DNA of 58,943 nucleotides from Planctomycetota bacterium (GCA_016209595.1 JACQVV010000046.1:1-58943), one strand, 5' to 3'. Positions 9,667 to 32,064 are shown, counted from the first letter of the stretch. A program made the numbers and translations. Notes: a model not told the origin generated them from the letters alone.

Positions 9667-9833
9667 TGCGAACTTCCTCGTCGCGCGGGAAGCGGCGAAT
9701 CGGCTCGGCATCGACGTGACGGTCTTCGCCGGCGGCTACGCGCGATACAAGTCCCATGGGCTTCGCCACTGCGAACCGGGTGAGTGCCCCTACGAGCACA
9801 AGCCCGTGGTGGCGTAGAGGCCCCTCAATCCGG

Positions 9834-10823
9834 GTGAATCTCGTCACTGGCGGGGGCGGCTACCTGGGTTCGCACCTCTCCCGGGCGCTCCTCGCGCGCG
9901 GCGAGCGCGTACGTGTTCTCGATGTCCAGCGCACCAGCCTCTGCCCGGAGGAGGTCGAGTTCGTCCGCGGGGACGTGCGGGACGCCGGGACCGTCCAGGG
10001 CGCGCTCCGCGGCGTCCGGCGGGTCTTCCACATCGCGTTCGTCCAGTCGCTCTCGCGGCGCCCCGAGCGGGAGAGGCGCGCGGTGAACCTCGGCGGGATG
10101 GCGAACCTTCTCGCGGCGAGCGAAACTGCCGGTGTCGAGCGGTTCGTCTTCGCCTCGACGATCGAGATCTACGGGACGAGGCCCCCCGACCCCTGCCCCG
10201 AGGACGCCCCGACCGACCGCCCCGTCGGCTGGTACGGGCGCCACAAGCTCCAGTGCGAACGGATGCTCCGGGCCGCCTGCTAGCGCGGGCTTCTCGGAAC
10301 GGCCCTCCGGATGCCCACGATCTGCGGCCGCGGGTTCTACAACCACCGGCCGCTTCTCCTCCTCATGGACCGGATCCTCGACGGCCGCCCGGTCGCTGTC
10401 GCGGGTGACGGGAGCCTGCCTGGCGACTTTGTCGCGGTCGGCGACGTCGTCCAGGCATTCCTCCTCGCCGGCGAGCGTCCCCAGGCACTCAGGGAGGCGT
10501 TCAACGTTTCGGCAAGGGAGAGCGCGAGCCACCTTGAAATCGTGCAGGCGATGATCGAAGCCACCGGTTCGCCCTCTCGGGTCCTCTGCATCCCCGCCCC
10601 CCTCGCTCGGGCCGCCCTCTGGGCCGGACGCCTTCTCCGTGTCCACGACCTCCCCGCCTGCCAGGACGGTTACCTTTTCCATCCGAACCGCTACTCGATC
10701 GAGAAAGCCCGGCGGCTTCTCGGCTATTCGCCCGCTCTTTCCGCCGCCGCCGCCGCCGCGGTCTTGATCGAGGGCTACCGGGAGGACCGTGACGCCGTCC
10801 GCCGCCGCTCGCGGGGGTACTAA
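9834..10823 (+). pseudogene. NAD-dependent epimerase/dehydratase (extended SDR) interrupted by an in-frame TAG at 10281-10283
   Basis: ORFs 9756..10283 and 10311..10823 share one frame. VNLVTGGGGYLGSHL Rossmann motif and YGRHK catalytic motif lie before the stop; the C-terminal substrate domain follows it. Confidence 0.7.
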
Positions 10824-10896: not shown

Positions 10897-12774
10897 TCAT
10901 GTCCCGCGCTCCCAGGCGGACACCCACGCTCCGATTTCCTGGGCGTAGCGGAGGAACCCGTCGTAGAACGGGTGCCGCGCGACGGTCGAGCCGTCGCCGA
11001 CCACGACGAGCTTCTTTCGCGCCCGAGTGATCGCGACGTTCATCCGGCGGATGTCGGCGAGGAATCCGATCTCGCCCGCGTCATTCGAGCGCACGAGCGA
11101 GACGACGACCGCCTCCTTCTCCCGCCCCTGGAAGCCGTCCACGGTGTCCACCTCGAGCCCCTCGCCCTCCTCTGCGCGCAGGAGCTCCCGGAGGCTCTGG
11201 ACCTGGGCGTCGTAGGGGGAGATCACCGCGACCTCGCCGGCGGGAACGCCGAGAGCGAGGATCCGAAGGACCTCGGAGGCGACGAGCGCCGCCTCGCCGG
11301 GGTTCGCCTTCGAGTCCGAGCCCGCGTGAGCCTCCTCCTCGAAGCCGCGGCCGGCCGTGTCGACGAAGACGAGCGGCGCGCCGTCGATCGTCTGGTTCGC
11401 GACGGCCGGATGGGCGCGGAGCTTCCCGCCGTAGAGGGCCTCGGACGGGTAGCGCATGATGACCTCGTTCATCCGGTGCTGCTCGGCGAGCGTCACCATC
11501 GCCTGCTCGCCTGACGCCGCCGTGAGGCGCTCGAAGAGGGAGATGCCCAGGCCGCCCTTCTCGGCCTCGGGCGAGAGGATCGTGGGCGGGAGCTGGAGGT
11601 GGTCGCCCGCGAGCACGGCACGGTCGGCGACGAGAAGCGCGAGGTAGATCGCCGGTTCGATCGCCTGCGTCGCCTCGTCGACGACGGCGAGCGGGAAGCG
11701 CCGGCCGGCGAGGGCGCGGACCTCGAGCCCCGTGAGCGTCGCCAGGACGACTTGGGCTCGGGAAAGGACGCTCCGCTCGGCCTCGGTCTGGAGTTCGCGC
11801 GCCTCGGCGAGGAGCCGCCGGCCCTCCCGCTTCCAGTCGCGCGACTCGGCGCGGTCTCCCGGTCTGTCGCGTTCGCGGCGTCTTCGCGCGGCGCGGAAGA
11901 GCCGGAACGCCTCCCGAGCGGCCTCCTCGGCGCGGCGGGCGCTCTCGTGCTCGCGCGCGCGCTCCTCCAGCGTCCGATCGAGGACTTGAGGGAGGACACG
12001 TGCCGGGTGGCCCAGACGAACAGCGTCGACGCCCGCTTCGACGAGGCGCTCGACGAGATTGTCGACCGCGAGGTTCGAAGGGGCCGCGGCGAGGACCTGC
12101 TCCCCTCGAGCGACCGCCCGGCGGATCACCTCGACGAGGACAGTCGTCTTGCCGGTCCCGGGGGGCCCGTGGACGAGGGCGAGGTCGCGGGCGCGGTCGG
12201 CGAGGTCGAGCGCCGATTCCTGCTCGCGGTTCAGACGGGTCACAAGCCGCGGGCCGCGCGCGTGCTCCTCGAAGCGCGGCGGTTCGCCCGCGAGGAATGG
12301 GTGCCATCGTCGCGCGTCCTTCTCGTTTCGCATGCGGCGGACGGCTCCCGCGAGGCGCTCGTGCGTGACCGAGGAGGGGAGGAGCTCGAGCGCGACGCGC
12401 CCCGTTGTCGCCCACTCGGGAGGCGGCTCGTCGAAAGCGATCCCGATCCGCGTTCGGCTCCGCCGGGCGACGACGCCCCGCGGCGGCTCGTCCGGCGCCT
12501 CCCTCCGTGGCACGACCGCGACGATCGATCCGGTCCCGATCTCGGAAGCTCCGAGCTCACCCCCTCCCGCGCGCTCATACGTGACGAGGGTGCGGCCCGC
12601 CAGCGCGCTCACCTCGACCGGCTCCGCGGAAGCGATCGCGATCCCGCGCGCCTCGCGCTCGGCGAGCGAAAGACGCGCCGCCGCGACCTCGAACCGCAGG
12701 GTCTCCGCGAGACGTTCGAGATCCAGGAGCCGGGCGAGCCGGTCGAAGTGCCGGGCGAGATCGATCGAAGCCAC
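10897..12774 (-). CDS. Superfamily-1B helicase of the Upf1/IGHMBP2/DNA2-like family
   Basis: ORF 10897..12774. Motifs seen: GPPGTGKTT, VVDEATQ, LAGDHLQLPPT, QHRMN, VDGFQGREKE, NVAITRARKKLVVVGD. Confidence 0.85.
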   Translation of the reverse strand: MASIDLARHFDRLARLLDLERLAETLRFEVAAARLSLAEREARGIAIASAEPVEVSALAGRTLVTYERAGGGELGASEIGTGSIVAVVPRREAPDEPPRGVVARRSRTRIGIAFDEPPPEWATTGRVALELLPSSVTHERLAGAVRRMRNEKDARRWHPFLAGEPPRFEEHARGPRLVTRLNREQESALDLADRARDLALVHGPPGTGKTTVLVEVIRRAVARGEQVLAAAPSNLAVDNLVERLVEAGVDAVRLGHPARVLPQVLDRTLEERAREHESARRAEEAAREAFRLFRAARRRRERDRPGDRAESRDWKREGRRLLAEARELQTEAERSVLSRAQVVLATLTGLEVRALAGRRFPLAVVDEATQAIEPAIYLALLVADRAVLAGDHLQLPPTILSPEAEKGGLGISLFERLTAASGEQAMVTLAEQHRMNEVIMRYPSEALYGGKLRAHPAVANQTIDGAPLVFVDTAGRGFEEEAHAGSDSKANPGEAALVASEVLRILALGVPAGEVAVISPYDAQVQSLRELLRAEEGEGLEVDTVDGFQGREKEAVVVSLVRSNDAGEIGFLADIRRMNVAITRARKKLVVVGDGSTVARHPFYDGFLRYAQEIGAWVSAWERGT

Positions 12775-12792: not shown

Positions 12793-14409
12793 TCACGGTC
12801 CCTCGATCACGATCTCGATCCCTTCCTTCTTCTCCCCGGACCCGAGAGTGACCTGGACGGTCCTCCTGCCGAGAACCTCGTGCCAGGCCTCGATCTCGTA
12901 GTCGCCGGGGGCGAGGCCCTCGAGGGAGAAGGTGCCGTCCTCGTCCGTCACGGAAAAGAAGGGGTGGTCGAGGACCGCGATCCGGGCGGCCATCCAGGGA
13001 TGGATGTCGCACCGGACCTGGATCGCGATCTCCGGCTGGTGGAAGACCCAGGTCTGTCGCATGCCCCGCGCCGGTTGATCGATGTTGAACCCGCTGTTGA
13101 AGAGGGAAAAAACGTGGACGTTGTGGTGGGTATCGTCGAGGTTCACGAAGGCGACCGGCTGTCCAGTCTGGATGGCGCTCACCCGCGGGCGGAAGACGCA
13201 ATCCACCTGGTTGATCTCCACCTCCTTCTTGCATGGTTCGAAGGAGAAGCCTTCGATGCCTTCCTTCACGTGGACGACGGCGTTCTGGACCTTCCCGTCC
13301 TGCACGAGCACGGCATCGAGGCGAGGGGCTTCCCCGTGCCGCGCTGCGCACCAGGGATCGGCGCTCATGTTGAGCGCGGGGTTCTGCGGAGGAACGCCGC
13401 GGAAGAGCACGACGCCTCGGATCCTCCCGGCCTTCTCGGGAAGGACGGTGTAGAGCGGGAGGGAGGCGTCTCGCGGGGGGCGTTTCCCTCCCTCCGGGGC
13501 CTCGGGACGGAGCGCGTAGCCTGTCCCGACGACGAGCGCGACTCCCAGGGCCGCGGCCAGCCCCGCCGAAACGCGCCGGACGTTCATGAGGTGTCGCACC
13601 CCGGCCCCGGCGAGGCTCACGGCGACAAGCATCAGCCAGTGGTAGCCGCGCGTCGCGGTCGGGAAGTGGTTCGAGATCATGATGAAGATGACGGGAAACG
13701 TCATCGCGTCGTTGTGGGCGAGCCGCACCCTCGCGCTCTTCCCGCTGACCGCGTCGGGCTCGCGCCCCGCCTTCATCGCCGCGACGAGTCTCTGCTGGGC
13801 CGGGATGATCCGGAACCACACGTTCCCGGCCATGAGCGTCCCGAGCACGGCGCCCAGATGGATGTAGCCCGAGCGGCCGGTCATCGCGCGGGAGAGGCCG
13901 TAGGCGAGGAGAGCCGCGAGCGCGAGGGAGACGAGCGAGGCGAGGGGGACGCTCCTCGCGAGCGGCGAGCGCCAGAGCACGTCGTAGACGAGCCAGGCGG
14001 CCGGGAGAGTCGCGAGACCGATCGCGGCGGCCTTCCCCGCGTCCGCTGCGCCCGATCCGGGGACGACCAGAAACCCCCCCAGGACGTACACGACCCCGAG
14101 GAGGAAGACGCCCGAGAGCCAGGTGAAGAACGCCTCCCACTTGAACCAGTGGAGCGCCGCGGGCATCCGCTGCGGCGCGGCAAGGACCCTTTCCACTCGG
14201 TAGAAACCGTCGCCGTGGGCCAGCCAGAGTCCCGCCCCGGAGGAGTTCTCCCCGCCGGTGCGGCCGGGGGGGGAGGTCGCCCGATCGAGCCACAGGAAGA
14301 AGAAGGAATGCCCGATCCAGGCGATTCCGGCGACGATGTGAGCCCATCGCAGGATCAGATTCAGCCATTCGGAAACCGCCGGATCCGTCGCGGCGAGATG
14401 GAGACCCAC
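12793..14409 (-). CDS. PuuD-like integral-membrane urate hydroxylase N-domain fused to a cupredoxin (type-1 copper) domain and a CarboxypepD_reg-like beta-sandwich
   Basis: ORF 12793..14409. N-terminus EWLNLILRWAHIVAGIAWIGHSFFFLWLD plus multiple TM segments. C-terminus has DDTHHNVH...CDIHPWM (Cys-x2-His-x2-Met) and no CxxCH. Confidence 0.65.
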   Translation of the reverse strand: MGLHLAATDPAVSEWLNLILRWAHIVAGIAWIGHSFFFLWLDRATSPPGRTGGENSSGAGLWLAHGDGFYRVERVLAAPQRMPAALHWFKWEAFFTWLSGVFLLGVVYVLGGFLVVPGSGAADAGKAAAIGLATLPAAWLVYDVLWRSPLARSVPLASLVSLALAALLAYGLSRAMTGRSGYIHLGAVLGTLMAGNVWFRIIPAQQRLVAAMKAGREPDAVSGKSARVRLAHNDAMTFPVIFIMISNHFPTATRGYHWLMLVAVSLAGAGVRHLMNVRRVSAGLAAALGVALVVGTGYALRPEAPEGGKRPPRDASLPLYTVLPEKAGRIRGVVLFRGVPPQNPALNMSADPWCAARHGEAPRLDAVLVQDGKVQNAVVHVKEGIEGFSFEPCKKEVEINQVDCVFRPRVSAIQTGQPVAFVNLDDTHHNVHVFSLFNSGFNIDQPARGMRQTWVFHQPEIAIQVRCDIHPWMAARIAVLDHPFFSVTDEDGTFSLEGLAPGDYEIEAWHEVLGRRTVQVTLGSGEKKEGIEIVIEGP

Positions 14410-14422
14410 GTTTCCGGCCGAG

Positions 14423-15253
14423 CTACGACGACGGCCCGGTCTCCCGCCAGAACCTCGCGAGCAGGTTCCCGGAGACCCGGCGGCGGTACGCTGCGGTCGA
14501 GCGAAGGTCGTCGATGGGGTGGATCTCCGACTGGAGCGCGACCTGCGCTTCCTCCATGGAGCCGCCGCGGGCGAGGGCCTCCTCGGTTCGGGTCGCCCGG
14601 ACGACCGTGGGGGCGACGCTTCCGAGGGCGATCCGCGGCCTCGGGGAGCGGACCGCGGCCATGACGACCTTCGAGATCGCCTGGGCGGCCCTCGTCCCGA
14701 CCTTGCGGAACCACTGCTTCCCCTCGACGGGCCCGATCTCGACCGCGACGATGATCTCGTCGGGCCGCATCACCGTCTTCCGGTAGCCGGTGTAGAAGGA
14801 GGTGAAGGGGATGCCGCGCTCGGCGGACGCGCTCGCAAGAACGACCGTCGCTTCAGCGACCGCGAGGACGGGGAGCGAATCCCCGGCGGGGGAACCGTTC
14901 GCGATGTTTCCGCCGAGCGTGCCGCGGTTCTGGATCTGCGGGCCGCCGATCTCGCGCGCCGCGGCGGCGAGCGAGGGGATCCGGGCGGCGACGAGCGGGG
15001 ACTTCAGGATGGCGGCGTAGGGGACCGCGGCGCCGATCGAGAGAGACGCGCCCCTTTCTTCGATCCGCGTGAGCTCCGGCAGACCCCAGAGGTCGAGAAA
15101 GCGCCGCCTCTTCTCGGTCCCGAACTGGAGGCCTACGTAGACGTCGGTGCACCCCGCGATCGGGACGAGGGGTCCCTCGTCCCGGAGCATCGCGAGCGCT
15201 TCGGCGAGCGAGCCGGGCCGGAGGAGCGCGAGCGCCCGGGTCGCGGTTCTCAC
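14423..15253 (-). CDS. Xanthine dehydrogenase family, FAD-binding subunit (CoxM/XdhB-like)
   Basis: GTG start at 15253 overlaps the upstream stop (GTGA). Sequence: LLRPGSLAEALAML...PIAGCTDVYV...GTLGGNIANGSPAGD. Confidence 0.8.
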   Translation of the reverse strand: MRTATRALALLRPGSLAEALAMLRDEGPLVPIAGCTDVYVGLQFGTEKRRRFLDLWGLPELTRIEERGASLSIGAAVPYAAILKSPLVAARIPSLAAAAREIGGPQIQNRGTLGGNIANGSPAGDSLPVLAVAEATVVLASASAERGIPFTSFYTGYRKTVMRPDEIIVAVEIGPVEGKQWFRKVGTRAAQAISKVVMAAVRSPRPRIALGSVAPTVVRATRTEEALARGGSMEEAQVALQSEIHPIDDLRSTAAYRRRVSGNLLARFWRETGPSS

Positions 15254-15675
15254 TTTCCCCTCTGGACGGCCCGGTAGATCGCGGTGTAGCCGGTGCAGCG
15301 GCAGAGGTTCCCCGCGAGCCCCGCGCGGATCTCCTCGAGGGTCGCGCCTGGAGGAAGGGCAAGTGCGGCGAGAAGCATGCCGGGCGTGCAGATGCCGCAC
15401 TGGGCCGCGCCCTCTTCCGCGAACGCCCGCTGGAGAGGGTGGTTCCCGCCCAGCCCCTCGACGGTCGTCACCTTCGCGCCCCGGACATGGGCGAAAGGGA
15501 CGAGACACGAGCAGACGGGCTCGCCGGAGACGAGTACGGTGCAGGCGCCGCACTCTCCCTCGCCGCAGCCTTCCTTGGTCCCGGTGAGGCCGCACTCCTC
15601 GCGCAGGACGTCGAGGAGGCGCTTCATGGGAGGCGCCTCGACATCGGCCGGGGCGCCGTTCAGCTCGAAGCGCAT
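15250..15675 (-). CDS. Xanthine dehydrogenase family, [2Fe-2S]-binding small subunit
   Basis: ORF 15250..15675. Contains CGEGECGACTV and CGICTPGM...CRCTGY iron-sulfur motifs. Confidence 0.9.
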   Translation of the reverse strand: MRFELNGAPADVEAPPMKRLLDVLREECGLTGTKEGCGEGECGACTVLVSGEPVCSCLVPFAHVRGAKVTTVEGLGGNHPLQRAFAEEGAAQCGICTPGMLLAALALPPGATLEEIRAGLAGNLCRCTGYTAIYRAVQRGK

Positions 15676-17774
15676 CGCTCGCTCGCTTCCAGGATCCGTT
15701 CGGGCGTCGCGGGGACGTCGCGGATGTCGAGCCCCAGGTGCCGGAGGGCGGCGACGATCGCGGGGGCCGGGCCGTCCATGGGGAGCTCCCCGACGCCCTT
15801 GGCGCCGAACGGGCCATGGCGGTACGGGTGCTCGGCGATCACGACGTCGATCTCGGGGACGTCGATCGTGGTCGGGATGGTGTAGTTCGTGAGCTGACAG
15901 TTCGCCATGCCGCCGTTCGCCATGACGACCTTTTCGATCGTGGCGAAGCCGATCCCTTGCGCGGTCCCCCCCTCGATCTGCCCGGCGGCCATCCGCGGGT
16001 GGATGGCCTTGCCGATGTCGGAGACAGAGGTCATCCGGATCGGGCGGATCTCGTAGGCGTCCGGGTCGAGCTCAAGTTCCGCCACGTCGCAGGCCCAGGC
16101 GTAGGCGGCGTAGGCCTGGCCCTGGTAGGTCCGGTCGTCCCAGGCCGGTCCCGGAGGCCTCTCGTATTCCTTCGTCACCGCGAATCCGCCGTGGCGGGCG
16201 AAGTACTCGCGCGGCGAGAGCCCGCCCAGGCGCTCCTTCATCTCGGCGGCGCAGCGGGCCAGGATCCCCCCCACGACCATGCAGGTCCGGGAGGCGACGG
16301 TCGGACCGCTGTCGGGGACGGCGGACGTGTCGGGCTGCGAGGTCTCGACGTCCTCGTAGGGGACCCCGAGCGCGTCGGCGACGATCTGGGCGTGCATCGT
16401 GCGCGTCCCCTGGCCGATCTCGGTCGATGCGACGAGGACCCGTACGCCCGTCCTCGTGAGCTCCAGGGTGCATTTCGATTTGAGCCAGCTCTCGCCCGAG
16501 CCGGTGAACCCCGAGCCGTGATAGAAGAGGGCGAGCCCGATGCCGCGACGGGTCCCTTTCCACTCGCGGCGCTTGCGATGAAAGTCCGTCCTCTCGACGG
16601 CACGGGCGAGGACGTCGAGGGCAGAGCCGTCCTCCTCCACAACCTGTCCCGTCGCGGTCCGGTCCCCCGGGGCCAGCGCGTTCACCTCCCGCAGGCGGAC
16701 GGGGTCCATCCCGAGGGCCTCGGCGATCCTCTCCATGTGGACCTCCGCCGCGAAGATCGTCTGCGGGGCCCCGAAGCCCCGAAAGGCGCCGTTGGGGGGC
16801 GTGTTGGTGAAGACCACGCGCCCCGAGACCCGCAGGTTCTCGCACCGGTAGGGCCCGACCGCGTGGATCACGCCGCGCGAGAGAACGACCGCGGAAAGCG
16901 TCGCGTAGGCTCCACCGTCCATGAGGATGTCGATCTCGGTCGCGGTGAGGCTCCCGTCGCGCTTGACGCCCGTCCGGTGGCGAACGATCGACGGGTGGCG
17001 CTTCGTCGTCGCGAGCATGTCCTCCTGCCGGTCGTAGACGATCTTCACCGGCCGGCGCGCCTTGAGGGCGAGGATCGCCGCGTGTCCTGCGAGGATCGAC
17101 GGGTACTCTTCCTTCCCGCCGAACCCGCCGCCCACCTCGCAGGCGACCACGCGGACGTTCTCGCCCGGGAGGGCGAGGAGCCGCACGAGCGCCTTGTGGA
17201 CGTAGTAGGGGCACTGGATCGAGCCGTGGATCGCGATCCCGTCCCCCTCCGGGACGGCGACGACGCCGTTCGGTTCGATGTAGAGCTGCTCCTGGTGCCC
17301 CGTCGTGTACTCGCCCTCGACCACGAGATCGGCCTCGGCGAAGCCTCGCGCGAGGTCGCCCCGCTCCATCAGGATCGTCTTGAAGGCCCTCGTCGACTTC
17401 CGCGGATCGAGGAGCGGCTCGGAGCGGTCGTACTCGATCTCGTAGCGCGCCTCGAGCAACCCCTCCCTGTCCTCGTGGGCGACGAGGAGGATCGGCTCGG
17501 CGAGGTGGCGCACCTCGCTCTGGACGAGGTAGGGCTGATCGTCGTCGATCAGCTGGACGACGTTCTCTCCAGGAATGTCCCGGTAGTCCGCGACGACGAA
17601 ACCCGCCGGGTCGAAGGCGGGCTGGATGCTCCGGATCCGCCCGCAGGGGATCGTCGCGCGGATCGTCGTCCCGTGGAGCATCCCCGGAAAGGAGATGTCG
17701 TCCACGTACTTCGCCGCGCCGGCGACCTTCGCGGCGCTGTCCTTTCGGGGGACGTTTGTTCCGACGGCGCCCAT
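15660..17774 (-). CDS. Xanthine dehydrogenase family, molybdopterin-binding large subunit
   Basis: Starts at MGAVGTNVPRKDSAAKVAGAAKYVDD inside composite ORF 15660..19781. Contains VGGGFGGKE. Overlaps the next gene by 16 nt. Confidence 0.85.
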   Translation of the reverse strand: MGAVGTNVPRKDSAAKVAGAAKYVDDISFPGMLHGTTIRATIPCGRIRSIQPAFDPAGFVVADYRDIPGENVVQLIDDDQPYLVQSEVRHLAEPILLVAHEDREGLLEARYEIEYDRSEPLLDPRKSTRAFKTILMERGDLARGFAEADLVVEGEYTTGHQEQLYIEPNGVVAVPEGDGIAIHGSIQCPYYVHKALVRLLALPGENVRVVACEVGGGFGGKEEYPSILAGHAAILALKARRPVKIVYDRQEDMLATTKRHPSIVRHRTGVKRDGSLTATEIDILMDGGAYATLSAVVLSRGVIHAVGPYRCENLRVSGRVVFTNTPPNGAFRGFGAPQTIFAAEVHMERIAEALGMDPVRLREVNALAPGDRTATGQVVEEDGSALDVLARAVERTDFHRKRREWKGTRRGIGLALFYHGSGFTGSGESWLKSKCTLELTRTGVRVLVASTEIGQGTRTMHAQIVADALGVPYEDVETSQPDTSAVPDSGPTVASRTCMVVGGILARCAAEMKERLGGLSPREYFARHGGFAVTKEYERPPGPAWDDRTYQGQAYAAYAWACDVAELELDPDAYEIRPIRMTSVSDIGKAIHPRMAAGQIEGGTAQGIGFATIEKVVMANGGMANCQLTNYTIPTTIDVPEIDVVIAEHPYRHGPFGAKGVGELPMDGPAPAIVAALRHLGLDIRDVPATPERILEASERCASS

Positions 17775-20437: not shown

Positions 20438-21850
20438 CTAGCAGTCGAAGTACATCACGAACTCGTACGGGTGCGGCCGCAGGCGGACCTGGTCGAATTC
20501 CCTCTTCCTCTTGTAGTCGAGCCAGGTGTCGATCAAGTCCTGGGTGAAGACACCGGGCTTCACCAGGAAGGCATGGTCGCGCGCCAGGGCGTCGAGGGCC
20601 TCCTCGAGCGAGCCCGGGGTGCTCGCGATTTTCTCGGCCTCCTCCGGCTCCAGGTCGTAGAGGTCCTTGTCGATCGGCGCCGGTGGCTCGATCTTGTTCT
20701 GGATTCCGTCGATCGCGGCGCACAGGATCGCGGAGAAGGCGAGGTAGGGATTCGCGGAGGGGTCCGGGCAGCGGAACTCGATCCGCTTCGCCTTCGGGTT
20801 CGCCGAGTACATCGGGATGCGGAGCGCGGCCGAGCGGTTCCTCTGGGAGAGCATGAGGTTGACCGGGGCTTCGTAGCCGGGGACGAGCCGGCGGTAGGAG
20901 TTGGTCGTCGGGGCGCAGAAGCCCAGGAGCGCGTGGGCGTGCTGGATGATCCCGCCCGCGGCGTACCAGGCGAGGTCGGAGAGCCCGGCGTATCGTTCGC
21001 CCGCGAAGAGGGGCTTCTCGCCCTTCCAGAGGGAGATGTGCGTGTGCATCCCCGTGCCGTTGTCCTGGAACAGGGGCTTGGGCATGAAGGTCACGGTCTT
21101 CCCGTGGCGGGAGGCGACGTTCTTCAGCACGTACTTGTACATCATGACCTGGTCCGCCATGCGGACGAGGTCCCTGTACTTCATGTCGATCTCGGCCTGG
21201 CCGGCGTTCCCGACCTCGTGGTGGTGGGCCTCGACCTCGATCCCGATCGAGCGGAGCGTCTCGACCATCTCGGTTCGAAGGTCTTGCATCGAGTCGCTCG
21301 GCGGGACCGGGAAGTAGCCCTCCTTGGCGCGCATCTGGTAGCCCTTGTTGCCGTCTCCCGGCCGGCCGCGCGTCCACAGGCCCTCCGAGCTCTCGATCTC
21401 GTAGTGGGCGAAGTTCATGCCCTGATCGAACCGGGCGCTGTCGAAGACGAAGAACTCGAGCTCCGGACCGCAGTAGCAGGTGTCGGCGATCCCGATCTTC
21501 TTCATGTGCTCCACGGCGCGCCTCGCGACCTGGCGCGGGTCACGACTGTAGGCCTTGCGCGTGATGGGATCCTGGATGTCGCAGATCATCGAGAGCGTCG
21601 TGTGCGCGGAGAACGGATCGAGGAACGCGCTCGCCGCGTCGGGGATGACGAGCATGTCGCTCTCGTTGATCGCCTGCCAGCCCCGGATCGACGAGCCGTC
21701 GAAGCCGAAGCCGTCGGCGAAGCTCCGCTCGTCGAGCTGGTCCACCGGAACGGTGAAGTGCTGCCAGGTCCCGGGCATGTCCACGAACTTGAGATCGATC
21801 GCGACGACCTTCTTGTCCTTGCAGAACTGAAGAACTTCCTTGGGATTCAC
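20438..21850 (-). CDS. glnA: Glutamine synthetase, type I
   Basis: ORF 20438..21850 (GTG start). FVDMPGTWQHFT...FDGSSIRGW...MPKPLFQDNGTGMHTH. Confidence 0.95.
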   Translation of the reverse strand: MNPKEVLQFCKDKKVVAIDLKFVDMPGTWQHFTVPVDQLDERSFADGFGFDGSSIRGWQAINESDMLVIPDAASAFLDPFSAHTTLSMICDIQDPITRKAYSRDPRQVARRAVEHMKKIGIADTCYCGPELEFFVFDSARFDQGMNFAHYEIESSEGLWTRGRPGDGNKGYQMRAKEGYFPVPPSDSMQDLRTEMVETLRSIGIEVEAHHHEVGNAGQAEIDMKYRDLVRMADQVMMYKYVLKNVASRHGKTVTFMPKPLFQDNGTGMHTHISLWKGEKPLFAGERYAGLSDLAWYAAGGIIQHAHALLGFCAPTTNSYRRLVPGYEAPVNLMLSQRNRSAALRIPMYSANPKAKRIEFRCPDPSANPYLAFSAILCAAIDGIQNKIEPPAPIDKDLYDLEPEEAEKIASTPGSLEEALDALARDHAFLVKPGVFTQDLIDTWLDYKRKREFDQVRLRPHPYEFVMYFDC

Positions 21851-21956
21851 GAGCTGTAGCCCCCCTTATCCATGCGTTTTTGGAAGCACTACCTTCGAAG
21901 CGCCTCGACGGCGAGCGTCGCCGAGGGTTTGACCCTCGCCAAACGGGACGATAGTT

Positions 21957-24900
21957 TCACCGACTCTCCTGCGCGGCCGCCGCCCCCGCCTCCAGGGGCT
22001 CCAGATGCCGCCGCCACGATTTCGCCTTGAGGTCCTCCGGACCGTGTCGCGAGAGCGCCCGCACGACCCGGCGCGCGAGCCAGAGGTCGGTGAGGAGCGG
22101 GATCTCCAGATCGACCGCCGTCCGGCGGATCCGGAAGCAGTCGGGGCGCCCGCGCTCGTCCCACTCGCGAGGGATATTGATGACGAGGTCGATCGCTCCC
22201 TCCCGCATGAGGTCGACCGCCCGCGACGGCCTCGTGAAGTCGTCCTCCTTGTCCACTTCGCTCGCCGGGAGCCCCTGGCCGGAGAGGATCTCCGCCGTGC
22301 CCGGCGTCGCGTAGAGGGCGAGCCCCATGTCGAGGAGGAGCCGCGTCTCCTCGGCGAAGCGGTACTTGTCCCCGACCGGTCCGAGCGAGAGGAGGACGCC
22401 CTTCTTCGGGAAGCGGAAGCCGGTGGCGAGCATCGCCTTGAGGAGCGCCTCGTCCGCGTCGTCGCCGAAGCAGGCGACCTCGCCCGTCGAGGCCATCTCG
22501 ACGCCCAGGACCGGGTCGGCGCCCGAGAGGCGCCGGAACGAGAACATGGGGGCCTTCACCCCCACGTGGTCGAGGTCGAGCGGGTTGGCGCGCCGGTCGA
22601 GAGAGGAGCGCGGGGCTCCCAGCATGAGCCGCGTCGCCTCGCGGATGAAGTTCGTGCCCAGGACCTTCGAGACGAACGGGAAGCTCCTCGACGCCCGGAG
22701 GTTCGTCTCGATCACCTTGACCGAGTTGTGGCGCGAGAGCATCTGCACGTTGAACGGGCCCGTCACCGCGAGCGCTCGCGCGAGCGTCTCGGCCGTCCGG
22801 CGCACCCGCCGGATCGTCTCGAGATAGAGCTGCTGCGGCGGAAGGACGAGCGTCGCGTCGCCCGAGTGGACGCCGGCATCCTCGACGTGCTCGGAGATCG
22901 CCCAGAGGACGATCTCGCCCCGGTCGGCCACGGCGTCGAACTCGATCTCCCGCGCATGCTTCTCGAACTTCGAGACGACGACCGGGTATTCGGGGGAGAC
23001 CTTCGTCGCGCCCGCGAGGTAGCCCTTGAGCTCGCCGGCGGTGTGGGCGACCCGCATCGCGGCTCCGGAGAGGACGTAGGACGGGCGGACCAGCACCGGG
23101 AAGCCGCCCAGGCTCTCGACCACGCCCTCGAGGTCCTCTAGTCCCGTGGCCTGGGCCCAGCGGGGCTGGTCGATCGCGAGTGCGTCGCAAAGGGCGGAAA
23201 ACTTTCCGCGGTCCTCCGCCCGGTCGATCGACTCGGGCGACGTGCCGAGAATCCGAATGCCCGCCCGGTGGAGCCGGAGCGCCAGGTTGTTCGGCGTCTG
23301 CCCCCCCATCGAGACGATGACCCCTTCCGGCTTCTCCCGCTCGCAGATCTCCAGGACCGCCTCGAGCGAGATCTCGTCGAAGAAGAGCCGGTCGCAGATG
23401 TCGTAGTCGGTCGAGACCGTCTCCGGGTTGAAGTTGAGTAGAAGGGTTTCATATCCCAGCTCCCGCGCCGCCATGACCGCGTTGACGCAGCACCAGTCGA
23501 ACTCGACCGAGGAGCCGATCCGGTAGCATCCGGAGCCCAGGACGAGGACGCTCTTCTTCCCTGCGGGCGGGAGGTCGTGTTCGTCCGCGGCGTAGGTGAG
23601 GTAGAGGTAATTCGTCTCGGCCGGGTACTCGGCGGCGAGCGTGTCGATCCGGGCGATCTTCGGGCGGACATCGAGCTCTCGGCGGCGCTCGCGTACTTCC
23701 TCGAGCGTCGCGCCCACGAGCGGCGCGATTCCCCGGTCGCTGTATCCCGCGCGCTTGGCCGTCCTCATCGTCTCCCGGTCGATCGCGAAGGCGCCCCGGA
23801 GCCTCGCAAGGCCCCGGCGGATCTCGACCGTCCGCTCGATCTCGGCGAGGAAGAATCGATCGATGGCCGTGAGCTCCGCGATCCGGTCGATCGAGAGCCC
23901 CTCCTCGAAGGCGCGCGCGACGGCGAAGATCCGCCGGGGCGTCGGCTCGCGGAGCTCGCGCGCGAGATCGGGAAACTCGAAGGCCCGCGGGTCGAGCCCC
24001 ACGACCCCGATCTCCAGCATCCGGAGCGCCTTCTGGAGGGCTTCCGGGAAGGAGCGGCCGATCGCCATGACCTCGCCCACCGACTTCATCTCGGTCCCGA
24101 TCCGCGGGTCGACTCCTTGAAACTTCTCGAAGTCCCAGCGGGGAACCTTGCAGACGATGTAGTCGAGCGCGGGCTCGAAGAAGGCGGTCGTTGTCCGGGT
24201 GATCGCGTTGGCGAGCTGCGGGAGCGTGTAGCCCAGCGCGATCTTCGCCGCGACGTAGGCGAGCGGGTAGCCCGTCGCCTTGGAGGCGAGCGCCGAGGAG
24301 CGGGAGAGCCGCGGGTTCACCTCGATCACCCGGTAGTCGCGCGAGCGCGGGTCCAGGGCGAACTGGATGTTCGACTCGCCCGTGATCCCCAGGTGGCGCA
24401 TCGTCCGGAGCGAGAGGTCGCGCAGGAGCTGGTAGTCGCGGTCGTCGAGGGTCTGGCTCGGAGCGACCACGATCGACTCGCCCGTGTGGATTCCCATCGG
24501 ATCCACGTTTTCCATGTTGCAGACGGTGACCGCGTTGTCCAGTCCGTCGCGGACGACCTCGTACTCGATTTCTTTCCAGCCCGCGAGGCACTCCTCCACC
24601 AGCACCTGCGGGACTCCCGTGAAGGCGCGCTCGAGCGCGGCGGAGAGCTCCTCCTCGGTCCTCACCACGGCCGAGCCCTTCCCGCCGAGCGAGAAAGACG
24701 CGCGCAGGATCACCGGGAAGCCGATCTCGCGGGCCGCTCGCGCCGCCTCCGCGGGCGACTTCGCCGAGCGGCTTCGCGCAACCCGGACGCCGATCTCGGC
24801 CAGCCGGTCGTTGAAGAGCTGGCGGTCCTCGGCGTTCCGGATCGCCTCTACGGGAGTCCCCAGGACCCGGACGCCGTGGCGAGCCAGGACCCCCGCGTCG

Positions 24901-25226
24901 GAGAGCGCGAGGCCCGCATTCAAGGCGGTCTGGCCGCCAAAGCCCAGCAAAACCCCGTCGATCCGCTCCTCGACCAGCACCTTCTCGACAAACTCCGGCG
25001 TCACAGGCAGGAAGTAGACCGAGTCGGCGAGCTCGTGCGAGGTCTGGATCGTCGCGATGTTGGGGTTTAAGAGAACCGTGTGGACGCCCTCTTCCTTTAG
25101 AGCTTTGAGCGCCTGCGACCCCGAGTAGTCGAACTCGCCGGCCTGGCCGATCTGCAGCGCCCCCGACCCCAGGACCAGGACCCGGTCCGGCCGGGCGGGC
25201 AGGTAGGCGCGGGCGATGCCTCTCAC
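21957..25226 (-). CDS. carB: Carbamoyl-phosphate synthase large subunit
   Basis: GTG at 25226 overlaps the carA stop (GTGA). VLVLGSGALQIGQAGEFDYSGSQA...; 1089 aa. The rest of ORF 21957..25736 is an upstream extension. Confidence 0.95.
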   Translation of the reverse strand: MRGIARAYLPARPDRVLVLGSGALQIGQAGEFDYSGSQALKALKEEGVHTVLLNPNIATIQTSHELADSVYFLPVTPEFVEKVLVEERIDGVLLGFGGQTALNAGLALSDAGVLARHGVRVLGTPVEAIRNAEDRQLFNDRLAEIGVRVARSRSAKSPAEAARAAREIGFPVILRASFSLGGKGSAVVRTEEELSAALERAFTGVPQVLVEECLAGWKEIEYEVVRDGLDNAVTVCNMENVDPMGIHTGESIVVAPSQTLDDRDYQLLRDLSLRTMRHLGITGESNIQFALDPRSRDYRVIEVNPRLSRSSALASKATGYPLAYVAAKIALGYTLPQLANAITRTTTAFFEPALDYIVCKVPRWDFEKFQGVDPRIGTEMKSVGEVMAIGRSFPEALQKALRMLEIGVVGLDPRAFEFPDLARELREPTPRRIFAVARAFEEGLSIDRIAELTAIDRFFLAEIERTVEIRRGLARLRGAFAIDRETMRTAKRAGYSDRGIAPLVGATLEEVRERRRELDVRPKIARIDTLAAEYPAETNYLYLTYAADEHDLPPAGKKSVLVLGSGCYRIGSSVEFDWCCVNAVMAARELGYETLLLNFNPETVSTDYDICDRLFFDEISLEAVLEICEREKPEGVIVSMGGQTPNNLALRLHRAGIRILGTSPESIDRAEDRGKFSALCDALAIDQPRWAQATGLEDLEGVVESLGGFPVLVRPSYVLSGAAMRVAHTAGELKGYLAGATKVSPEYPVVVSKFEKHAREIEFDAVADRGEIVLWAISEHVEDAGVHSGDATLVLPPQQLYLETIRRVRRTAETLARALAVTGPFNVQMLSRHNSVKVIETNLRASRSFPFVSKVLGTNFIREATRLMLGAPRSSLDRRANPLDLDHVGVKAPMFSFRRLSGADPVLGVEMASTGEVACFGDDADEALLKAMLATGFRFPKKGVLLSLGPVGDKYRFAEETRLLLDMGLALYATPGTAEILSGQGLPASEVDKEDDFTRPSRAVDLMREGAIDLVINIPREWDERGRPDCFRIRRTAVDLEIPLLTDLWLARRVVRALSRHGPEDLKAKSWRRHLEPLEAGAAAAQESR

Positions 25227-26347
25227 GGGACGCGGACCCTGCCTTCGCTCCGCTCGGGGTGGGCCTTCATGGCGCGGACCATCCGCACGAAGTCGTCGAA
25301 GAGGTAGGCCGTGTCCCGCGGGCCGGCGGCGGCCTCGGGGTGGAACTGCACCGAAGAGAAGGGACGGAAGCGGTGGCGGATTCCCTCGTTCGTCTGGTCG
25401 TTCAGGTTGACGAACCAGGGCTCCCAGTCCGCGGGGAGCGATTCCGTGGCGACCGCGTATCCGTGGTTCTGACTGGTCACGTACGCCCGGCGACTGACCT
25501 GGTCCATCACCGGCTGGTTGTGCGAGCGGTGGCCGTACTTGAGCTTGTAGGTCTTCGCCCCCGCGGCGAGGGCCAGCAGCTGGTGGCCGAGGCAGATCCC
25601 AAAGGTCGGGACGCCCCGGTCGAGGATCCCGCGGATCCGTTCGACGAGAGGCCCCAGAGCCGCGGGGTCGCCCGGACCGTTCGTGAGCATGACCCCGTCC
25701 ACCTGGTCGAGGAGCGACTCCCAGTCGGCCGAACACGGCGCGAGGACGACCGAGACGCCTCGAGCCTGGAGCGAACGCAGGATGTTCTCCTTCGCTCCGG
25801 TGTCGAGAACGAGGATCTCGATGTCGCCGCCCGGATGGCGGACGATCTCGCTACCTTCGACCAGATCGACGACCGTGGGCATGTCAATCGAGTGGGCGCG
25901 CCTCTTTCGCCCCTCGACGTCCGCGCCCTCGGCGAGAAGCCAGCCCTCCATGGTGCCGTGCTCGCGGAGGCGCCGCGTGAGCGTCCGCGTGTCCACGCCC
26001 TCGATCGCCGGGACTCCCTCGTCGGCGAGCCATGCGGCGAGCGTCCGCACGGCGGCGTGGTGGCTCGGCCGGGCGGAATAGTGGGTGACGACGAGGCCCT
26101 GGACCTGGATCCGCCCCGACTCAAACGGCCCCGCGGGGACGCCGTAGTTCCCCTGGAGCGGATAGGTCATGACGAGGATCTGGCCGCGGTACGACGGGTC
26201 GGTCAGCGTCTCGACGTAGCCGGTGAGGCCCGTGTTGAAGACGACCTCGCCCCGGACATCCCGCGCGGCGCCGAAGGCCCGTCCCGGGAAGACGGAACCG
26301 TCGGCCAGGATGAGGTCCATCCGCCCCTCCTCCCCTTCTCCCGGCAT
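25223..26347 (-). CDS. carA: Carbamoyl-phosphate synthase small (glutaminase) subunit
   Basis: ORF 25223..26347. LILADGSVFPGRAFGA...; GATase triad region GICLGHQLL. The start may be the internal MDLIL at 26320. Confidence 0.9.
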   Translation of the reverse strand: MPGEGEEGRMDLILADGSVFPGRAFGAARDVRGEVVFNTGLTGYVETLTDPSYRGQILVMTYPLQGNYGVPAGPFESGRIQVQGLVVTHYSARPSHHAAVRTLAAWLADEGVPAIEGVDTRTLTRRLREHGTMEGWLLAEGADVEGRKRRAHSIDMPTVVDLVEGSEIVRHPGGDIEILVLDTGAKENILRSLQARGVSVVLAPCSADWESLLDQVDGVMLTNGPGDPAALGPLVERIRGILDRGVPTFGICLGHQLLALAAGAKTYKLKYGHRSHNQPVMDQVSRRAYVTSQNHGYAVATESLPADWEPWFVNLNDQTNEGIRHRFRPFSSVQFHPEAAAGPRDTAYLFDDFVRMVRAMKAHPERSEGRVRVP

Positions 26348-29900: not shown

Positions 29901-30635
29901 GTCAACAGCGACGGAATCTCCCTGGACCCTCGCAAGTCCCCAGTCCATCACGAGCACCTCGCCGAATTCCCCGGTCATCACGTTGTCGGGCTTGAGATCC
30001 CTGTGGACCACGCCGCGGCTGTGGGCGTAGGCGACGGCGTCGCAGACCTTGAGGAATACATGAAGCAGCCGCGCCAGCGTCTTTCCGGGATCCTGCGCGT
30101 CCGGACCGGATCCGTCCCCTCGCTCCGGGTCCTGCCGGATCTTCTCCAGCACTTCCCGGAGACTCTTGCCCTTGACGCGCTTCATGACGAGGTAGGGGCG
30201 GCGGCTCGACACGTCGACGCCCAGGTCGTGGACCGGGACGATGTTCGGGTGTTCGAGCTGTCCGGTGATCTGCGCCTCCAGGAGGAAGCGGCGCACCTGC
30301 CCGGGGTTCTTCGAATCAAGGAGGGTCTTCACCGCGACATCCCGCCGCAGGTCCCGGTCGGTCGCGAGCCAGACTTCTCCCATCCCTCCCCGGCCCAGTC
30401 GCTCCCGCGGCTTGTACTTGGGTCCCTGCGCCGGGTCCGTCGCGATCCCCCCCGCGAGGGAAAGGCCTGGCTCGGAGTCGAGGACGGTTTCGATCGAGGG
30501 ACCGGGGGGAAGACTGAGGATCGTCTCCGCGTTCTCGGGTTCCTCCGGTCCGTCACTCTGCGCGTGCGCTCTCTCGGGGCGCGGCGCTCCCCGCCGGGTG
30601 CGCCCGGAGCGGCCCTTCTTGGGTTCCTCGGCCAT
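26985..30635 (-). CDS. Hanks-type Ser/Thr kinase, one TM helix, large extracytoplasmic region, about nine C-terminal TPR repeats
   Basis: Starts at MAEEPKK (30635) inside ORF 26985..30887. Contains GRGGMGEVW, AVK, HRDLKPDN, DWG (not DFG), SPE, and TM IAVAGAAATLVALAAGLVGIVVVW. Confidence 0.85.
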   Translation of the reverse strand: MAEEPKKGRSGRTRRGAPRPERAHAQSDGPEEPENAETILSLPPGPSIETVLDSEPGLSLAGGIATDPAQGPKYKPRERLGRGGMGEVWLATDRDLRRDVAVKTLLDSKNPGQVRRFLLEAQITGQLEHPNIVPVHDLGVDVSSRRPYLVMKRVKGKSLREVLEKIRQDPERGDGSGPDAQDPGKTLARLLHVFLKVCDAVAYAHSRGVVHRDLKPDNVMTGEFGEVLVMDWGLARVQGDSVAVDGHGHGHGPRSRSTGTEAELTQPGTVMGTPAYMSPEQARGEIETLDQRSDVYSLGAILYEILSLERPIEANTVGIAIERAARGEYRPPSARGVAPWPVPRELEAVVLKAMARRPRDRYPSALALSAEIEAFLAGRPLAAARYSPWEVLVKWARRNRIAVAGAAATLVALAAGLVGIVVVWARAESEKLRETERARVDREREIAAERSLAAAELYRAGALEWGAAETLPFNPASPQEHIRPHAAALMKMGQALALHPEPPADWAASVAAWSRTLQDRAEDVGDWALAQVLAESARAWGATSAEERSARLSSVDEAMERDVALDRERLESILSRIRAAERAAGRQGGLMDGELPERARRLAMESASRAAVTGRVLELLTDPADPPRGQVLLFLIDVLGRKGDVHTDVNGSRSVDVVTRVLEEGARGRDVGRASELAAWVRAAGRIEARVPGAIPDLARTVGALSSVQGEKGLVAHASVQTMEHVARIRDGSPLPPPEGTAGRVAFLGEIEELADWAAAAARSGSGYTALLTRRAGDAELSPLQLAFVLGQIGLHGDDDPPDPGAPDLAPVAVVRAAFEAAWSACRDPTATVEVRADQRVLVMASAMALSRLQVIDFGPRLFECRNEAGGRLTGAGDMELASTLLPLPVTQPRTGLEYEHRGTARSLQNDLEGALADLTRAIELDPGLGSAYLNRGAVRKAMGDLEGAIADYTRAAEIGPARAAIYLNRGAALAARGDSRRAIEDYDRAIEIDPGYAAAYTNRGNARANLGDAAGALEDFGRAIELDPGLSIAYVNRGAIRAEAGDLDGAIEDFTVAIEIDPRSSSAHANRGLARQEKGDLAGALEDLDRAIELDPRNPNFPFNRGIALESMEDYAGALEEFTRAAELDPRFAEAHYKKGAMLLALDDFPAAIGPFDLATRLAPAFWQAWASRGIALAGVGRSEEAAASFDRALEVAPPEYRERIEEARRESLGR
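27040..27950 (-). repeat. Array of about nine consecutive 34-aa (102-bp) TPR units within the kinase gene
   Basis: Recurrent A(I/L)ExDPxxxxAYxNRGxxxxxxGDxxGAxxD(F/Y)xxA in the translated C-terminus. Confidence 0.6.
29861..29905. repeat. Degenerate hexanucleotide microsatellite (GGTCAC)n with single-base insertions, inside the kinase activation segment
   Basis: ccgtggaccgtgaccgtggaccgtgaccgtgaccgtgaccgtc. Encodes DGHGHGHGPRSRST on the minus strand. Confidence 0.7.
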
Positions 30636-30768
30636 GATCGTCTCTCTCGTCTGGACCAGGGCGGCGCGCGGCGTCTTTTCCGCGAGCGAGTCCTTGGATT
30701 GTAGCGACGGCTTCCCGATTCCTGAAACGGTTGCGGGATGCGGCCGGGCGCGGTATAAGACCCGTCCG

Positions 30769-32064
30769 ATGAGCGACCTCCACCTGCGGCGCGGACGGCT
30801 CTTCGATCCCGCGAGCGGCCTCGACCGGGAGGGAGACGTCATCCTGCGCGAGGGGAGGATCGCGGCGCTGGGGAAGGGGCTCGCCACGCCGGCGGGAGCC
30901 GTGGTCGTGGACGCGCGGGATCTGCTTCTCGTGCCGGGGCTAGTGGACCTCCACGTTCACCTGCGCGAGCCGGGGGAGGAATACAAAGAGGACATCCGTT
31001 CGGGGACCGCCGCGGCCGCGGCGGGAGGCTTCGCGGCCGTCTGCTCCATGCCCAACACGAAACCCCCGAACGACTGCCGGTCCGTGACCGAACTCATTCT
31101 CGCGCGGGCGCGCGAGGCGGGATTGGCGCGCGTCTACCCCGTGGGGGCGATCTCGAAGGGGCTGGAGGGAAAGACCCTCGCGGACATCGGCGATCTGGCC
31201 GAGGCAGGGTGCGTCGCCATCACGGACGACGGGCGGCCGGTCATGAGCGCGCTCGTCATGCGCCGGGCCATGGAGTACGCGAGGTCGTTCGGACTCACCG
31301 TGACGCAGCACGCCGAGGACCTCGATCTCTCCGGCAAGGGCTCGATGAACGAGGGGGCGGCCTCGACGCGCGCGGGGCTCCGCGGCCAGCCGGCCCAGGC
31401 GGAGGAGGTCATCGTCGCGCGCGACATCGCGCTCGCCGAGCTCACGGGCGCGCGCTACCACGTGGCGCACCTCTCGACGGCCGCGGCACTCGCGCGCGTC
31501 CGCGAGGCGAAATCGCGCGGCCTCCCCGTGACCTGCGAGGTGACGCCGCACCACCTGACGCTCACCGACGAGGCCTGCACGGGCTACGACACCTCGACGA
31601 AGGTGAACCCGCCGCTCCGCACGCCGGCCGACATCGAGGCGCTCATCGAGGCCCTCGCCGAAGGGACGATCGACGCCATCGCGACCGACCATGCCCCGCA
31701 CTCCTCGGTCGAGAAGGAGCTCGAGTTCGACGAGGCCGCCTTCGGGATGATCGGCCTGGAGACCGCGCTCCCGCTCGTCCTTTCCCTCGTCGTGTCGGGG
31801 AAGCTCTCGCTCGGGCGAGCGATCGAGTGCCTCACGTCCCGAGCGGCCAGGGTCTATGGTCTCTCCGGGGGGACGCTCGCCGAGGGGGCGCCAGGCGACG
31901 TCACCGCGATCGACCTCGCGCGGCGGTGGACGTACGATCCGTCGCGCGGGAAGTCGAAAAGCGCGAACAGCCCCTTCGCGGGCCGGGAGCTCGTTGGAAT
32001 GGCCGTTCTCACCGTGGTCGCGGGACGCGTCGTCCACGACACGCTCTCCGCGGTCGGGAGATGA
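30769..32064 (+). CDS. pyrC: Dihydroorotase
   Basis: ATG at 30769 within ORF 30241..32064. Contains [16 protein letters not shown] and HVAHLST. Confidence 0.9.

Follow-up and report, generated by a model that had tools for sequence, protein, structure and literature searches.

A PuuD-type membrane protein with a predicted type-1 copper domain in place of cytochrome c, encoded behind xanthine-dehydrogenase-type genes in a Planctomycetota bacterium

The subject of this study is a gene from a 58,943-nucleotide stretch of DNA of a Planctomycetota bacterium (GCA_016209595.1, JACQVV010000046.1:1-58943; G+C ∼70%), referred to in what follows as the window, whose 538-residue product joins a membrane domain of the urate hydroxylase family PuuD to a predicted cupredoxin (PuuD-Cu). 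Four sequencing runs labeled groundwater metagenome contain the sequence, one of them with every word sampled from it. The gene (12793..14409, GTG start at 14409) is the fourth in a compact string on the minus strand. It begins with the molybdenum (Mo) large subunit of a hydroxylase of the xanthine dehydrogenase (XDH) type (15660..17774, 704 amino acids, ATG at 17774 preceded by GGAGAG, stop at 15660), matching Pfam Ald_Xan_dh_C, MoCoBD_1 and MoCoBD_2, and continues with a 141-residue 2Fe-2S subunit (15250..15675, ATG at 15675; Fer2 and Fer2_2) that overlaps the large-subunit stop by 16 nucleotides. The FAD-binding subunit (14423..15253; FAD_binding_5 and CO_deh_flav_C) starts with a GTG at 15253, sharing the four nucleotides GTGA with the stop of the 2Fe-2S gene, and a gap of 13 nucleotides separates its own stop from the PuuD-Cu gene. 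An initial annotation, prepared from the sequence alone, had described this order and the overlaps of 16 and 4 nucleotides, and direct reading of the open reading frame (ORF) junctions bears it out. The gene for the 538-residue protein is probably co-transcribed with those of the three-subunit xanthine dehydrogenase.

Residues 12-286 (13552..14376, minus strand) form a Urate_ox_N membrane domain (PF06181, COG3748; DUF989/PuuD) with eight predicted helices. The Pfam match (E=3.2e-88; 296 bits against a cutoff of 26.9) covers profile positions 3-278 of 295, establishing at full length the PuuD-like N-terminal domain of the initial annotation, in which the quoted segment AHIVAGIAWIGHSFFFLWLD is indeed present. 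Over 278 amino acids the domain is 45% identical (E=1e-71) to a Pseudomonas aeruginosa protein labeled 'urate hydroxylase PuuD', the gene of which stands at the end of a puuE-uraD-alc-ureidoglycolate lyase cluster; the C-termini of the two proteins are unrelated. A full-length AlphaFold2 model, built on 115 homologues and with a mean pLDDT of 84.6, places helices at residues 10-44, 84-110, 124-147, 154-175, 178-213, 220-246, 257-277 and 282-299. This is the full-length form of PuuD and not the short form with four transmembrane helices (4-TM), and the model agrees with the published topology of PuuD, eight helices with an Nout-Cout orientation (PMC4562309). The CxxCH motif of the C-terminal cytochrome c is reported to be strictly conserved in all PuuD sequences (PMC4562309), and a motif search finds CxxCH nowhere in the 538-residue protein. 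There are zero NCBIfam matches for the protein, and relatives carry the automatic labels 'urate hydroxylase PuuD' (NCBI) or 'uncharacterized membrane protein/plastocyanin' (JGI).

The absence of CxxCH had been noted at the outset, together with the motifs DDTHHNVH and CDIHPWM, both of which can be read in the sequence and which had been taken as an amicyanin-type copper pattern. The predicted copper ligand set (12991..13125, minus strand) comprises His429 (13123-13125), Cys467 (13009-13011), His470 (13000-13002) and Met473 (12991-12993), with all four codons verified. Of the 120 best homologues 115 have C-x2-H-x2-M, the other 5 having CxxCH, and an alignment of the 115 shows no variation at H429, N430, C467, H470, W472 or M473, a degree of conservation far above what chance would give. 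Equally invariant are Q401, Q417, N423, D425 and a pair of cysteines, Cys354 (13348-13350) and Cys404 (13198-13200). This pair (13198..13350, minus strand) probably forms a periplasmic disulfide.

A single-sequence phmmer search of the PDB with the C-terminal 237 amino acids returned only the transthyretin-like repeats of NOMO and did not find the cupredoxin, so that a profile built from 20 sequences was needed. With this profile (residues 318-538) amicyanins are matched at E=2.9e-7 to 1.2e-6, the HN dipeptide falling on amicyanin His53-Asn54 and CDVHPWM on CTPHPFM (Cys92, His95, Met98). The amicyanin alignments displayed are those of the P94A and P94F mutant chains, CT(A/F)HPFM, and wild-type 1AAC matches as well (E=1.2e-6). 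The cupredoxin domain (residues ∼395-480; 12970..13227, minus strand) that is delineated by this profile, by Foldseek and by a model of the module alone (pLDDT 94.8, pTM 0.91) has pLDDT values above 90 in both the full-length and the module models. Foldseek searches with the two models give ∼100 matches at E<=1e-3, those listed all being cupredoxins or cupredoxin-containing chains, and for amicyanin, plastocyanin and pseudoazurin the probability is 1.00, with target-normalised TM scores of 0.69-0.80 and root-mean-square deviations of ∼2-4 Å. In the AlphaFold2 model Cys467 closes strand 460-467 and Met473 lies just before strand 474-480, as in type-1 copper proteins. The ligands that align with His53, Cys92, His95 and Met98 thus occupy canonical places in a confidently predicted fold, and the computations show the modeled C-terminal domain to be an amicyanin-like cupredoxin with a type-1 ligand set, from which we infer that the module binds copper. 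It would be periplasmic, because its stand-alone homologues, with signal peptides of the lipoprotein type, are lipoproteins and because the even number of helices fits the Nout-Cout topology (PMC4562309).

The cupredoxin is accompanied by a second β-sandwich, predicted at residues 475-536 (12802..12987, minus strand) and of the CarboxypepD_reg/transthyretin-like type, which accounts for the sandwich that had been placed after the copper loop. In the protein of the window the Pfam match is below the gathering threshold (E=2.2e-6, 28.3 versus 32.3 bits, residues 475-528) and begins only at profile position 17; all 20 family members match, the best with E=3.4e-9, and the module profile recovers the transthyretin-like NOMO repeats in the PDB at E=1.2e-9. 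The first β-strand of the periplasmic module, GRIRGVVLFRGVPP (residues 327-341; 13387..13431, minus strand; strand 328-337 in both models), is probably part of this transthyretin-like sandwich. Since the Pfam match is truncated and pTM is high, it seems that the cupredoxin is nested within a single sandwich made up of the GRIRGVVLFRGVPP strand and residues 475-536.

In a library of 50%-identity representatives 3,332 clusters match the module at E<=1e-30, and among the best 150 of these clusters about 19 have the length and layout of the PuuD fusion, which, to judge from these sequences, is widespread and common in metagenomes. There is also a third PuuD architecture of 680-733 amino acids, two Urate_ox_N domains in tandem followed by cytochrome c, seen in P0006, P0018 and P0117, the three of the five CxxCH homologues covered by a domain scan; in the other two, P0023 and P0028, CxxCH is present.

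The genes that surround relatives of PuuD-Cu were surveyed at 16 independent loci containing either the fusion or, at L036, a split form. At 10 of these a gene for 5-hydroxyisourate (HIU) hydrolase, of the Transthyretin family, lies within 10 kb, usually together with genes for allantoinase and for a fusion of allantoicase with 2-oxo-4-hydroxy-4-carboxy-5-ureidoimidazoline (OHCU) decarboxylase. At L090 allantoinase, the allantoicase-OHCU decarboxylase fusion, HIU hydrolase and PuuD-Cu follow one another on one strand in the same operon. XDH-type genes are near the fusion at three loci (the window, L050 and L070), and at three of the 16 there are no relevant neighbors. These neighbors point to purines, in line with the initial annotation, which had placed its suggested swap of the redox partner from heme to copper in a purine pathway. 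A gene for the copper chaperone SCO1/SenC directly upstream of the fusion, overlapping it or a few bases away, at L004, L055 and L089 provides independent support for a copper cofactor. At seven of the 16 loci there is in addition a gene for a DUF6986 protein with weak signals of a malate-synthase TIM barrel and of HpcH/HpaI. Genes of this type occur after the XDH FAD subunit or beside PuuD-Cu in purine/ureide clusters (L001:1076-2416, L004:7886-9247, L088:6554-7999, L089:1415-2680, L090:13506-14774, L091:5073-6527, L092:10394-11764), and DUF6986 is a candidate for a step of the pathway, possibly the handling of glyoxylate.

What the copper module does elsewhere is seen in a module-only scan of species-representative genomes that gave at least 593 confirmed loci, with gene contexts taken from the best 80. 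At 73 of these 80 the module is not fused to DUF989 and is found in proteins of 230-360 amino acids with lipoprotein-type signal peptides. Recurrent neighbors, confirmed by Pfam, are COX15/CtaA, COX1, COX2, COX3, DUF420, a multihaem cytochrome c and a protein with the cytochrome b C-terminal domain. A heme-copper oxidase gene (COX1, COX2, COX3 or CtaA) is present at 55 of the 73 stand-alone loci, and at 18 of the 73 COX2 starts no more than 1.2 kb downstream on the same strand. Among the stand-alone loci (L005-L084; examples are L064:9218-10018, L026:4032-5843 and L049:10626-11588) a multihaem cytochrome c or cytochrome b gene is often upstream. On this genomic evidence the stand-alone lipoproteins are probably blue-copper electron donors of heme-copper oxidases. 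Because 55 of the 73 loci hold oxidase genes, the simplest reading of the module family is that its members are blue-copper proteins which carry electrons in the periplasm for the aerobic chain; once fused to PuuD, such a carrier would connect the oxidation of urate to that chain.

It might be argued that the C-terminal module is no electron outlet at all, serving instead in copper handling, as a structural or docking element, or as a source of electrons for PuuD, since its transthyretin-like half resembles binding and scaffold domains and sequence does not fix which way the electrons flow. We regard this as the least probable of the alternatives weighed here, given that the set of type-1 ligands, HN motif included, is complete and invariant, that homologues are embedded in respiratory oxidase operons, and that the module is located exactly where the cytochrome c that is argued to be essential (PMC4562309) normally sits.

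The remaining 18 stand-alone loci, those without oxidase genes, include all 8 at which the lipoprotein gene has a gene of the DUF989 type as its immediate neighbor. At seven of the eight this neighbor is a short DUF989 gene (∼205-240 amino acids, 4-TM) arranged tail-to-tail with the lipoprotein gene: L005:4516-5178, L013:10648-11241, L020:10667-11293, L022:10764-11471, L032:10675-11403, L035:2960-3583 and L040:7175-7816. The organisms carry the labels Omnitrophota, Eisenbacteria, Terriglobia, Planctomycetota and Deltaproteobacteria. One locus, L040 (CAMBFS010000017.1), is labeled as a metagenome-assembled genome (MAG) of Klebsiella pneumoniae and is probably mis-binned; its short DUF989 is 80% identical to that of L035, from a Deltaproteobacteria MAG. 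At L062 (10489-11487) a longer DUF989 gene, ∼270-330 amino acids depending on the start codon, lies downstream of the lipoprotein gene on the same strand, and at L036 (8971-9900) DUF989 is followed by a separate lipoprotein gene, with no oxidase genes nearby. No other neighbor is conserved across the 8 DUF989-adjacent stand-alone loci. A rough neighbor-joining (NJ) tree of the modules, computed without support values and used as a weak hint, puts fused, split and DUF989-adjacent modules outside a large clade of modules from oxidase operons, and groups the module of the window with that of L062. Such a pattern suggests that DUF989 and the copper module are long-standing partners in a role that extends beyond urate. 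It is tempting to go further and to propose that DUF989 is a general membrane redox module with the cupredoxin/transthyretin-like lipoprotein as its periplasmic partner in many phyla and with urate as one substrate of several, a speculation that we hold to be unlikely but that, if true, would mean that electrons enter aerobic respiration through a copper-based branch not recognised so far.

A phmmer alignment to human xanthine oxidoreductase (XOR; 2CKJ) shows that the Mo subunit keeps the equivalents of Gln768, Glu803, Arg881, Phe1010/Thr1011 and Glu1262 and has Thr at the position of Phe915, so that five of the six purine-binding or catalytic residues tested are retained. Many orthologues of the subunit are 68-73% identical to it. 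At L091 and L092, with orthologues of 70-73% identity, DUF6986 comes next and the orthologues face genes for classical uricase, HIU hydrolase and OHCU decarboxylase, joined at L092 by allantoicase and allantoinase, and at L093 the orthologue is followed by a purine/cytosine permease gene. Since its orthologues sit in these contexts we assign the Mo enzyme to purine catabolism; the genes around the relatives are purine genes, with classical uricase clusters beside the Mo-enzyme orthologues, rather than genes that would point to a non-purine substrate. A Mo enzyme that hydroxylates some other N-heterocycle such as nicotinate, with the PuuD-like protein oxidizing the product, would account for scores that fall below every NCBIfam equivalog cutoff for xanthine dehydrogenase (455.7 versus 783.65 for pucD, the best, and 414.7 versus 830.45 for Se_dep_XDH), for nicotinate dehydrogenase (3hrd) as the best PDB match of the N-terminal half of the Mo subunit, and for the Thr at the Phe915 equivalent. 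The equivalents of Glu803 and Arg881 are nevertheless both present, nicotinate dehydrogenase having Leu at the Glu position, and the gene contexts of the 70-73% orthologues, which adjoin the uricase, ureide or permease genes listed above, lead us largely to reject this possibility, which we judge very improbable. With the Mo enzyme taken as a xanthine dehydrogenase, PuuD-Cu in the window takes the place that DUF6986 has in relatives with a soluble uricase gene nearby, which, judged from gene order, looks like non-orthologous displacement of the urate-oxidizing step. The cluster of the closest XDH orthologue differs in having a gene of the PEMT family (phospholipid methyltransferase-like) between those of the 2Fe-2S and FAD subunits (L091:3770-4258).

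Several observations weigh against the assignment of the window protein as a urate oxidase with a copper outlet. The profile search that had been proposed to check the initial annotation is positive for Urate_ox_N, as described above, but not for the cupredoxin, where the Pfam models stay below threshold (Copper-bind, E=0.027, 15.3 versus 21.2 bits; Cupredoxin_1, E=0.1) and where it is the custom family profile that matches amicyanin; at E<=1, 7 of 20 family members match Copper-bind and 2 of 20 match Cupredoxin_1. Searches of the 59-kb window with tblastn did not find genes for HIU hydrolase, OHCU decarboxylase or allantoinase, nor for SCO1 or an oxidase. Since the fused modules fall outside the main oxidase-operon clade of the rough NJ tree, the oxidase as acceptor is an extrapolation. 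The window protein also mismatches 14 of the 90 columns that are at least 95% conserved, the next worst sequence having 6 mismatches and the median being 0, and motifs common to canonical PuuD are altered (HGGGF to HGDGF, RSxHNNY to RLAHNDA and STYG to TATRG) at residues 63-74, 227-235 and 250-253, in cytosolic loops I-II and V-VI. Its closest relative is only 47% identical, versus 70-73% for orthologues of the adjacent Mo subunit.

These deviations raise the possibility that the copy in the window is a diverged or neofunctionalised PuuD paralogue, acting on another substrate or decaying, within a fusion family that is still a urate oxidase. The losses fall in the two best-conserved cytosolic loops (PMC4562309), at residues that are kept even by the cytochrome-c PuuDs, and the distance to the nearest relative and the missing downstream ureide genes point in the same direction. 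The ORF is, on the other hand, intact and of full length, with a G+C content at third codon positions (GC3) of 0.85; H24, H65, H87, H232, N233 and H248 are retained along with all copper ligands; and the gene is packed tightly behind those of a highly conserved purine-type XDH, the predicted product of which is urate. The outlier status is moreover expected in part, because the alignment was chosen by similarity to the window protein, which is an outgroup by construction. We therefore consider a paralogue of this kind unlikely, while noting that the activity of the window copy is less certain than that of the family and that its function may be changed or weaker.

Taking these arguments together we favor, with a probability of roughly 0.7, the reading in which the 538-residue protein is a PuuD-family urate oxidase/hydroxylase whose type-1 copper domain replaces cytochrome c as the periplasmic electron acceptor, with the following mechanism, in which we infer that urate is oxidized, that copper is bound, which way the electrons flow and that an oxidase accepts them. 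In the cytoplasm the Mo/FeS/FAD enzyme would convert hypoxanthine and xanthine to urate, as its active-site residues and the contexts of its orthologues suggest. The eight-helix DUF989 domain would then oxidize urate to 5-hydroxyisourate, in keeping with its family membership and with the published genetics of PuuD, and electrons would pass one at a time to the periplasmic copper site formed by His429, Cys467, His470 and Met473. The reduced copper domain would deliver them to the aerobic respiratory chain, most likely to a heme-copper oxidase, an acceptor chosen because cytochrome oxidase operons contain the genes of the lipoproteins in which the module stands alone. Urate would thereby be oxidized without H2O2 and in a way that is coupled to respiration. 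In those genomes that encode SCO1/SenC directly upstream, this chaperone probably loads the copper.

Of the four types of urate oxidase PuuD is the one least understood, and the support for its function is genetic and comes from one paper. A natural and widespread copper version indicates that the outlet is exchangeable and supports a role of the fused domain as an electron acceptor, not in the catalytic chemistry. The module, of ∼220 amino acids, is predicted to be one rigid soluble unit (pTM 0.91) that should give strong optical and electron paramagnetic resonance (EPR) signals, while the lipoprotein homologues in oxidase operons suggest a destination for the electrons and would tie the scavenging of purine nitrogen to respiration. 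The phyla concerned are Acidobacteriota, Myxococcota, Bdellovibrionota and other poorly studied phyla of soil and groundwater, and pathway tools that demand a cytochrome c domain or a classical uricase would miss urate oxidation in such genomes.

Further genes in the window surround the string. A gene for an SF1 helicase (10897-12774, minus strand; AAA_11/AAA_12, with a SMUBP-2-like 1B domain) starts 18 nucleotides past the PuuD-Cu stop and may be co-transcribed with the xdh-puuD genes, with no obvious functional link, and a divergent aminotransferase gene lies upstream of the Mo-subunit gene. On the plus strand at 9756-10823 a gene for an NAD-dependent epimerase/dehydratase is broken by an in-frame TAG (10281-10283), its two halves matching opposite ends of the Pfam profile, the result of a nonsense mutation, a pseudogene or a sequencing error. 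A few kb from the operon, at 20438-26347 (minus strand) and 30241-32064 (plus strand), are genes for glutamine synthetase, the large and small subunits of carbamoyl-phosphate synthase and a dihydroorotase-like amidohydrolase, with several Ser/Thr kinases that have FHA or TPR domains encoded around them. The amidohydrolase (30241-32064) was the lone tblastn match to allantoinase, at 30% identity, and was rejected as such on account of its dihydroorotase (DHOase)-like signature (Pfam PF12890) and its position ∼4 kb from carAB; it is a probable dihydroorotase and provides no evidence for a ureide pathway.

It is of interest to compare PuuD-Cu with systems that are already known. With the PuuD proteins of Agrobacterium fabrum and Pseudomonas aeruginosa (PMC4562309) it shares the eight-helix DUF989 domain, a single periplasmic redox domain after helix VIII and the linkage to purine catabolism. 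The domain fused to PuuD itself is a cytochrome c of ∼100 amino acids, whereas here it is a cupredoxin with a transthyretin-like sandwich, ∼220 amino acids in all and without CxxCH, and the window copy departs from several loop residues found across the PuuD family. The likeness to amicyanin (Paracoccus denitrificans; 1AAC/1AAJ), plastocyanin and pseudoazurin lies in the Greek-key fold, in a His followed by Asn and in the short C-x2-H-x2-M loop, CTPHPFM of amicyanin aligning residue for residue with CDIHPWM of the window; identities of the window module to the top Foldseek cupredoxins are 13-27%. Amicyanin is a free soluble carrier, whereas the module of the window is tethered to a membrane enzyme, lies inside a second β-sandwich, has two extra invariant Cys residues and lacks a link to methylamine dehydrogenase. 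Closer to it are the stand-alone cupredoxin plus CarboxypepD_reg lipoproteins (L006-L084) of Acidobacteriota, Gemmatimonadota, Planctomycetota, Omnitrophota and others, which have the same two-part module (37-47% identical) with shared invariant ligands and cysteines, and which are unfused and encoded beside coxB, coxA, coxC, ctaA or DUF420.

Top or near-top Foldseek matches are the copper nitrite reductase NirK of Thermus scotoductus (6HBE) and a Nitrosopumilus multicopper oxidase with a C-terminal cupredoxin (9CCK). Both are soluble, periplasmic enzymes with catalytic domains and substrates unrelated to those of PuuD. A search of a literature library found no paper that connects PuuD or DUF989 to a cupredoxin, to plastocyanin or to blue copper, nor any later study of the mechanism of PuuD. 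Enzymes of the copper nitrite reductase type have a fused electron-transfer domain that is a cupredoxin in some cases and a cytochrome c in others, and this would set a precedent for the swap proposed here; exchange of cytochrome c and cupredoxin is known from plastocyanin and cytochrome c6 as well as from copper nitrite reductases that have additional domains. The novelty thus lies not in the principle but in the finding of such a swap in PuuD, in the two-part nature of the module, and in the links of this module to oxidase operons and to short DUF989 proteins.

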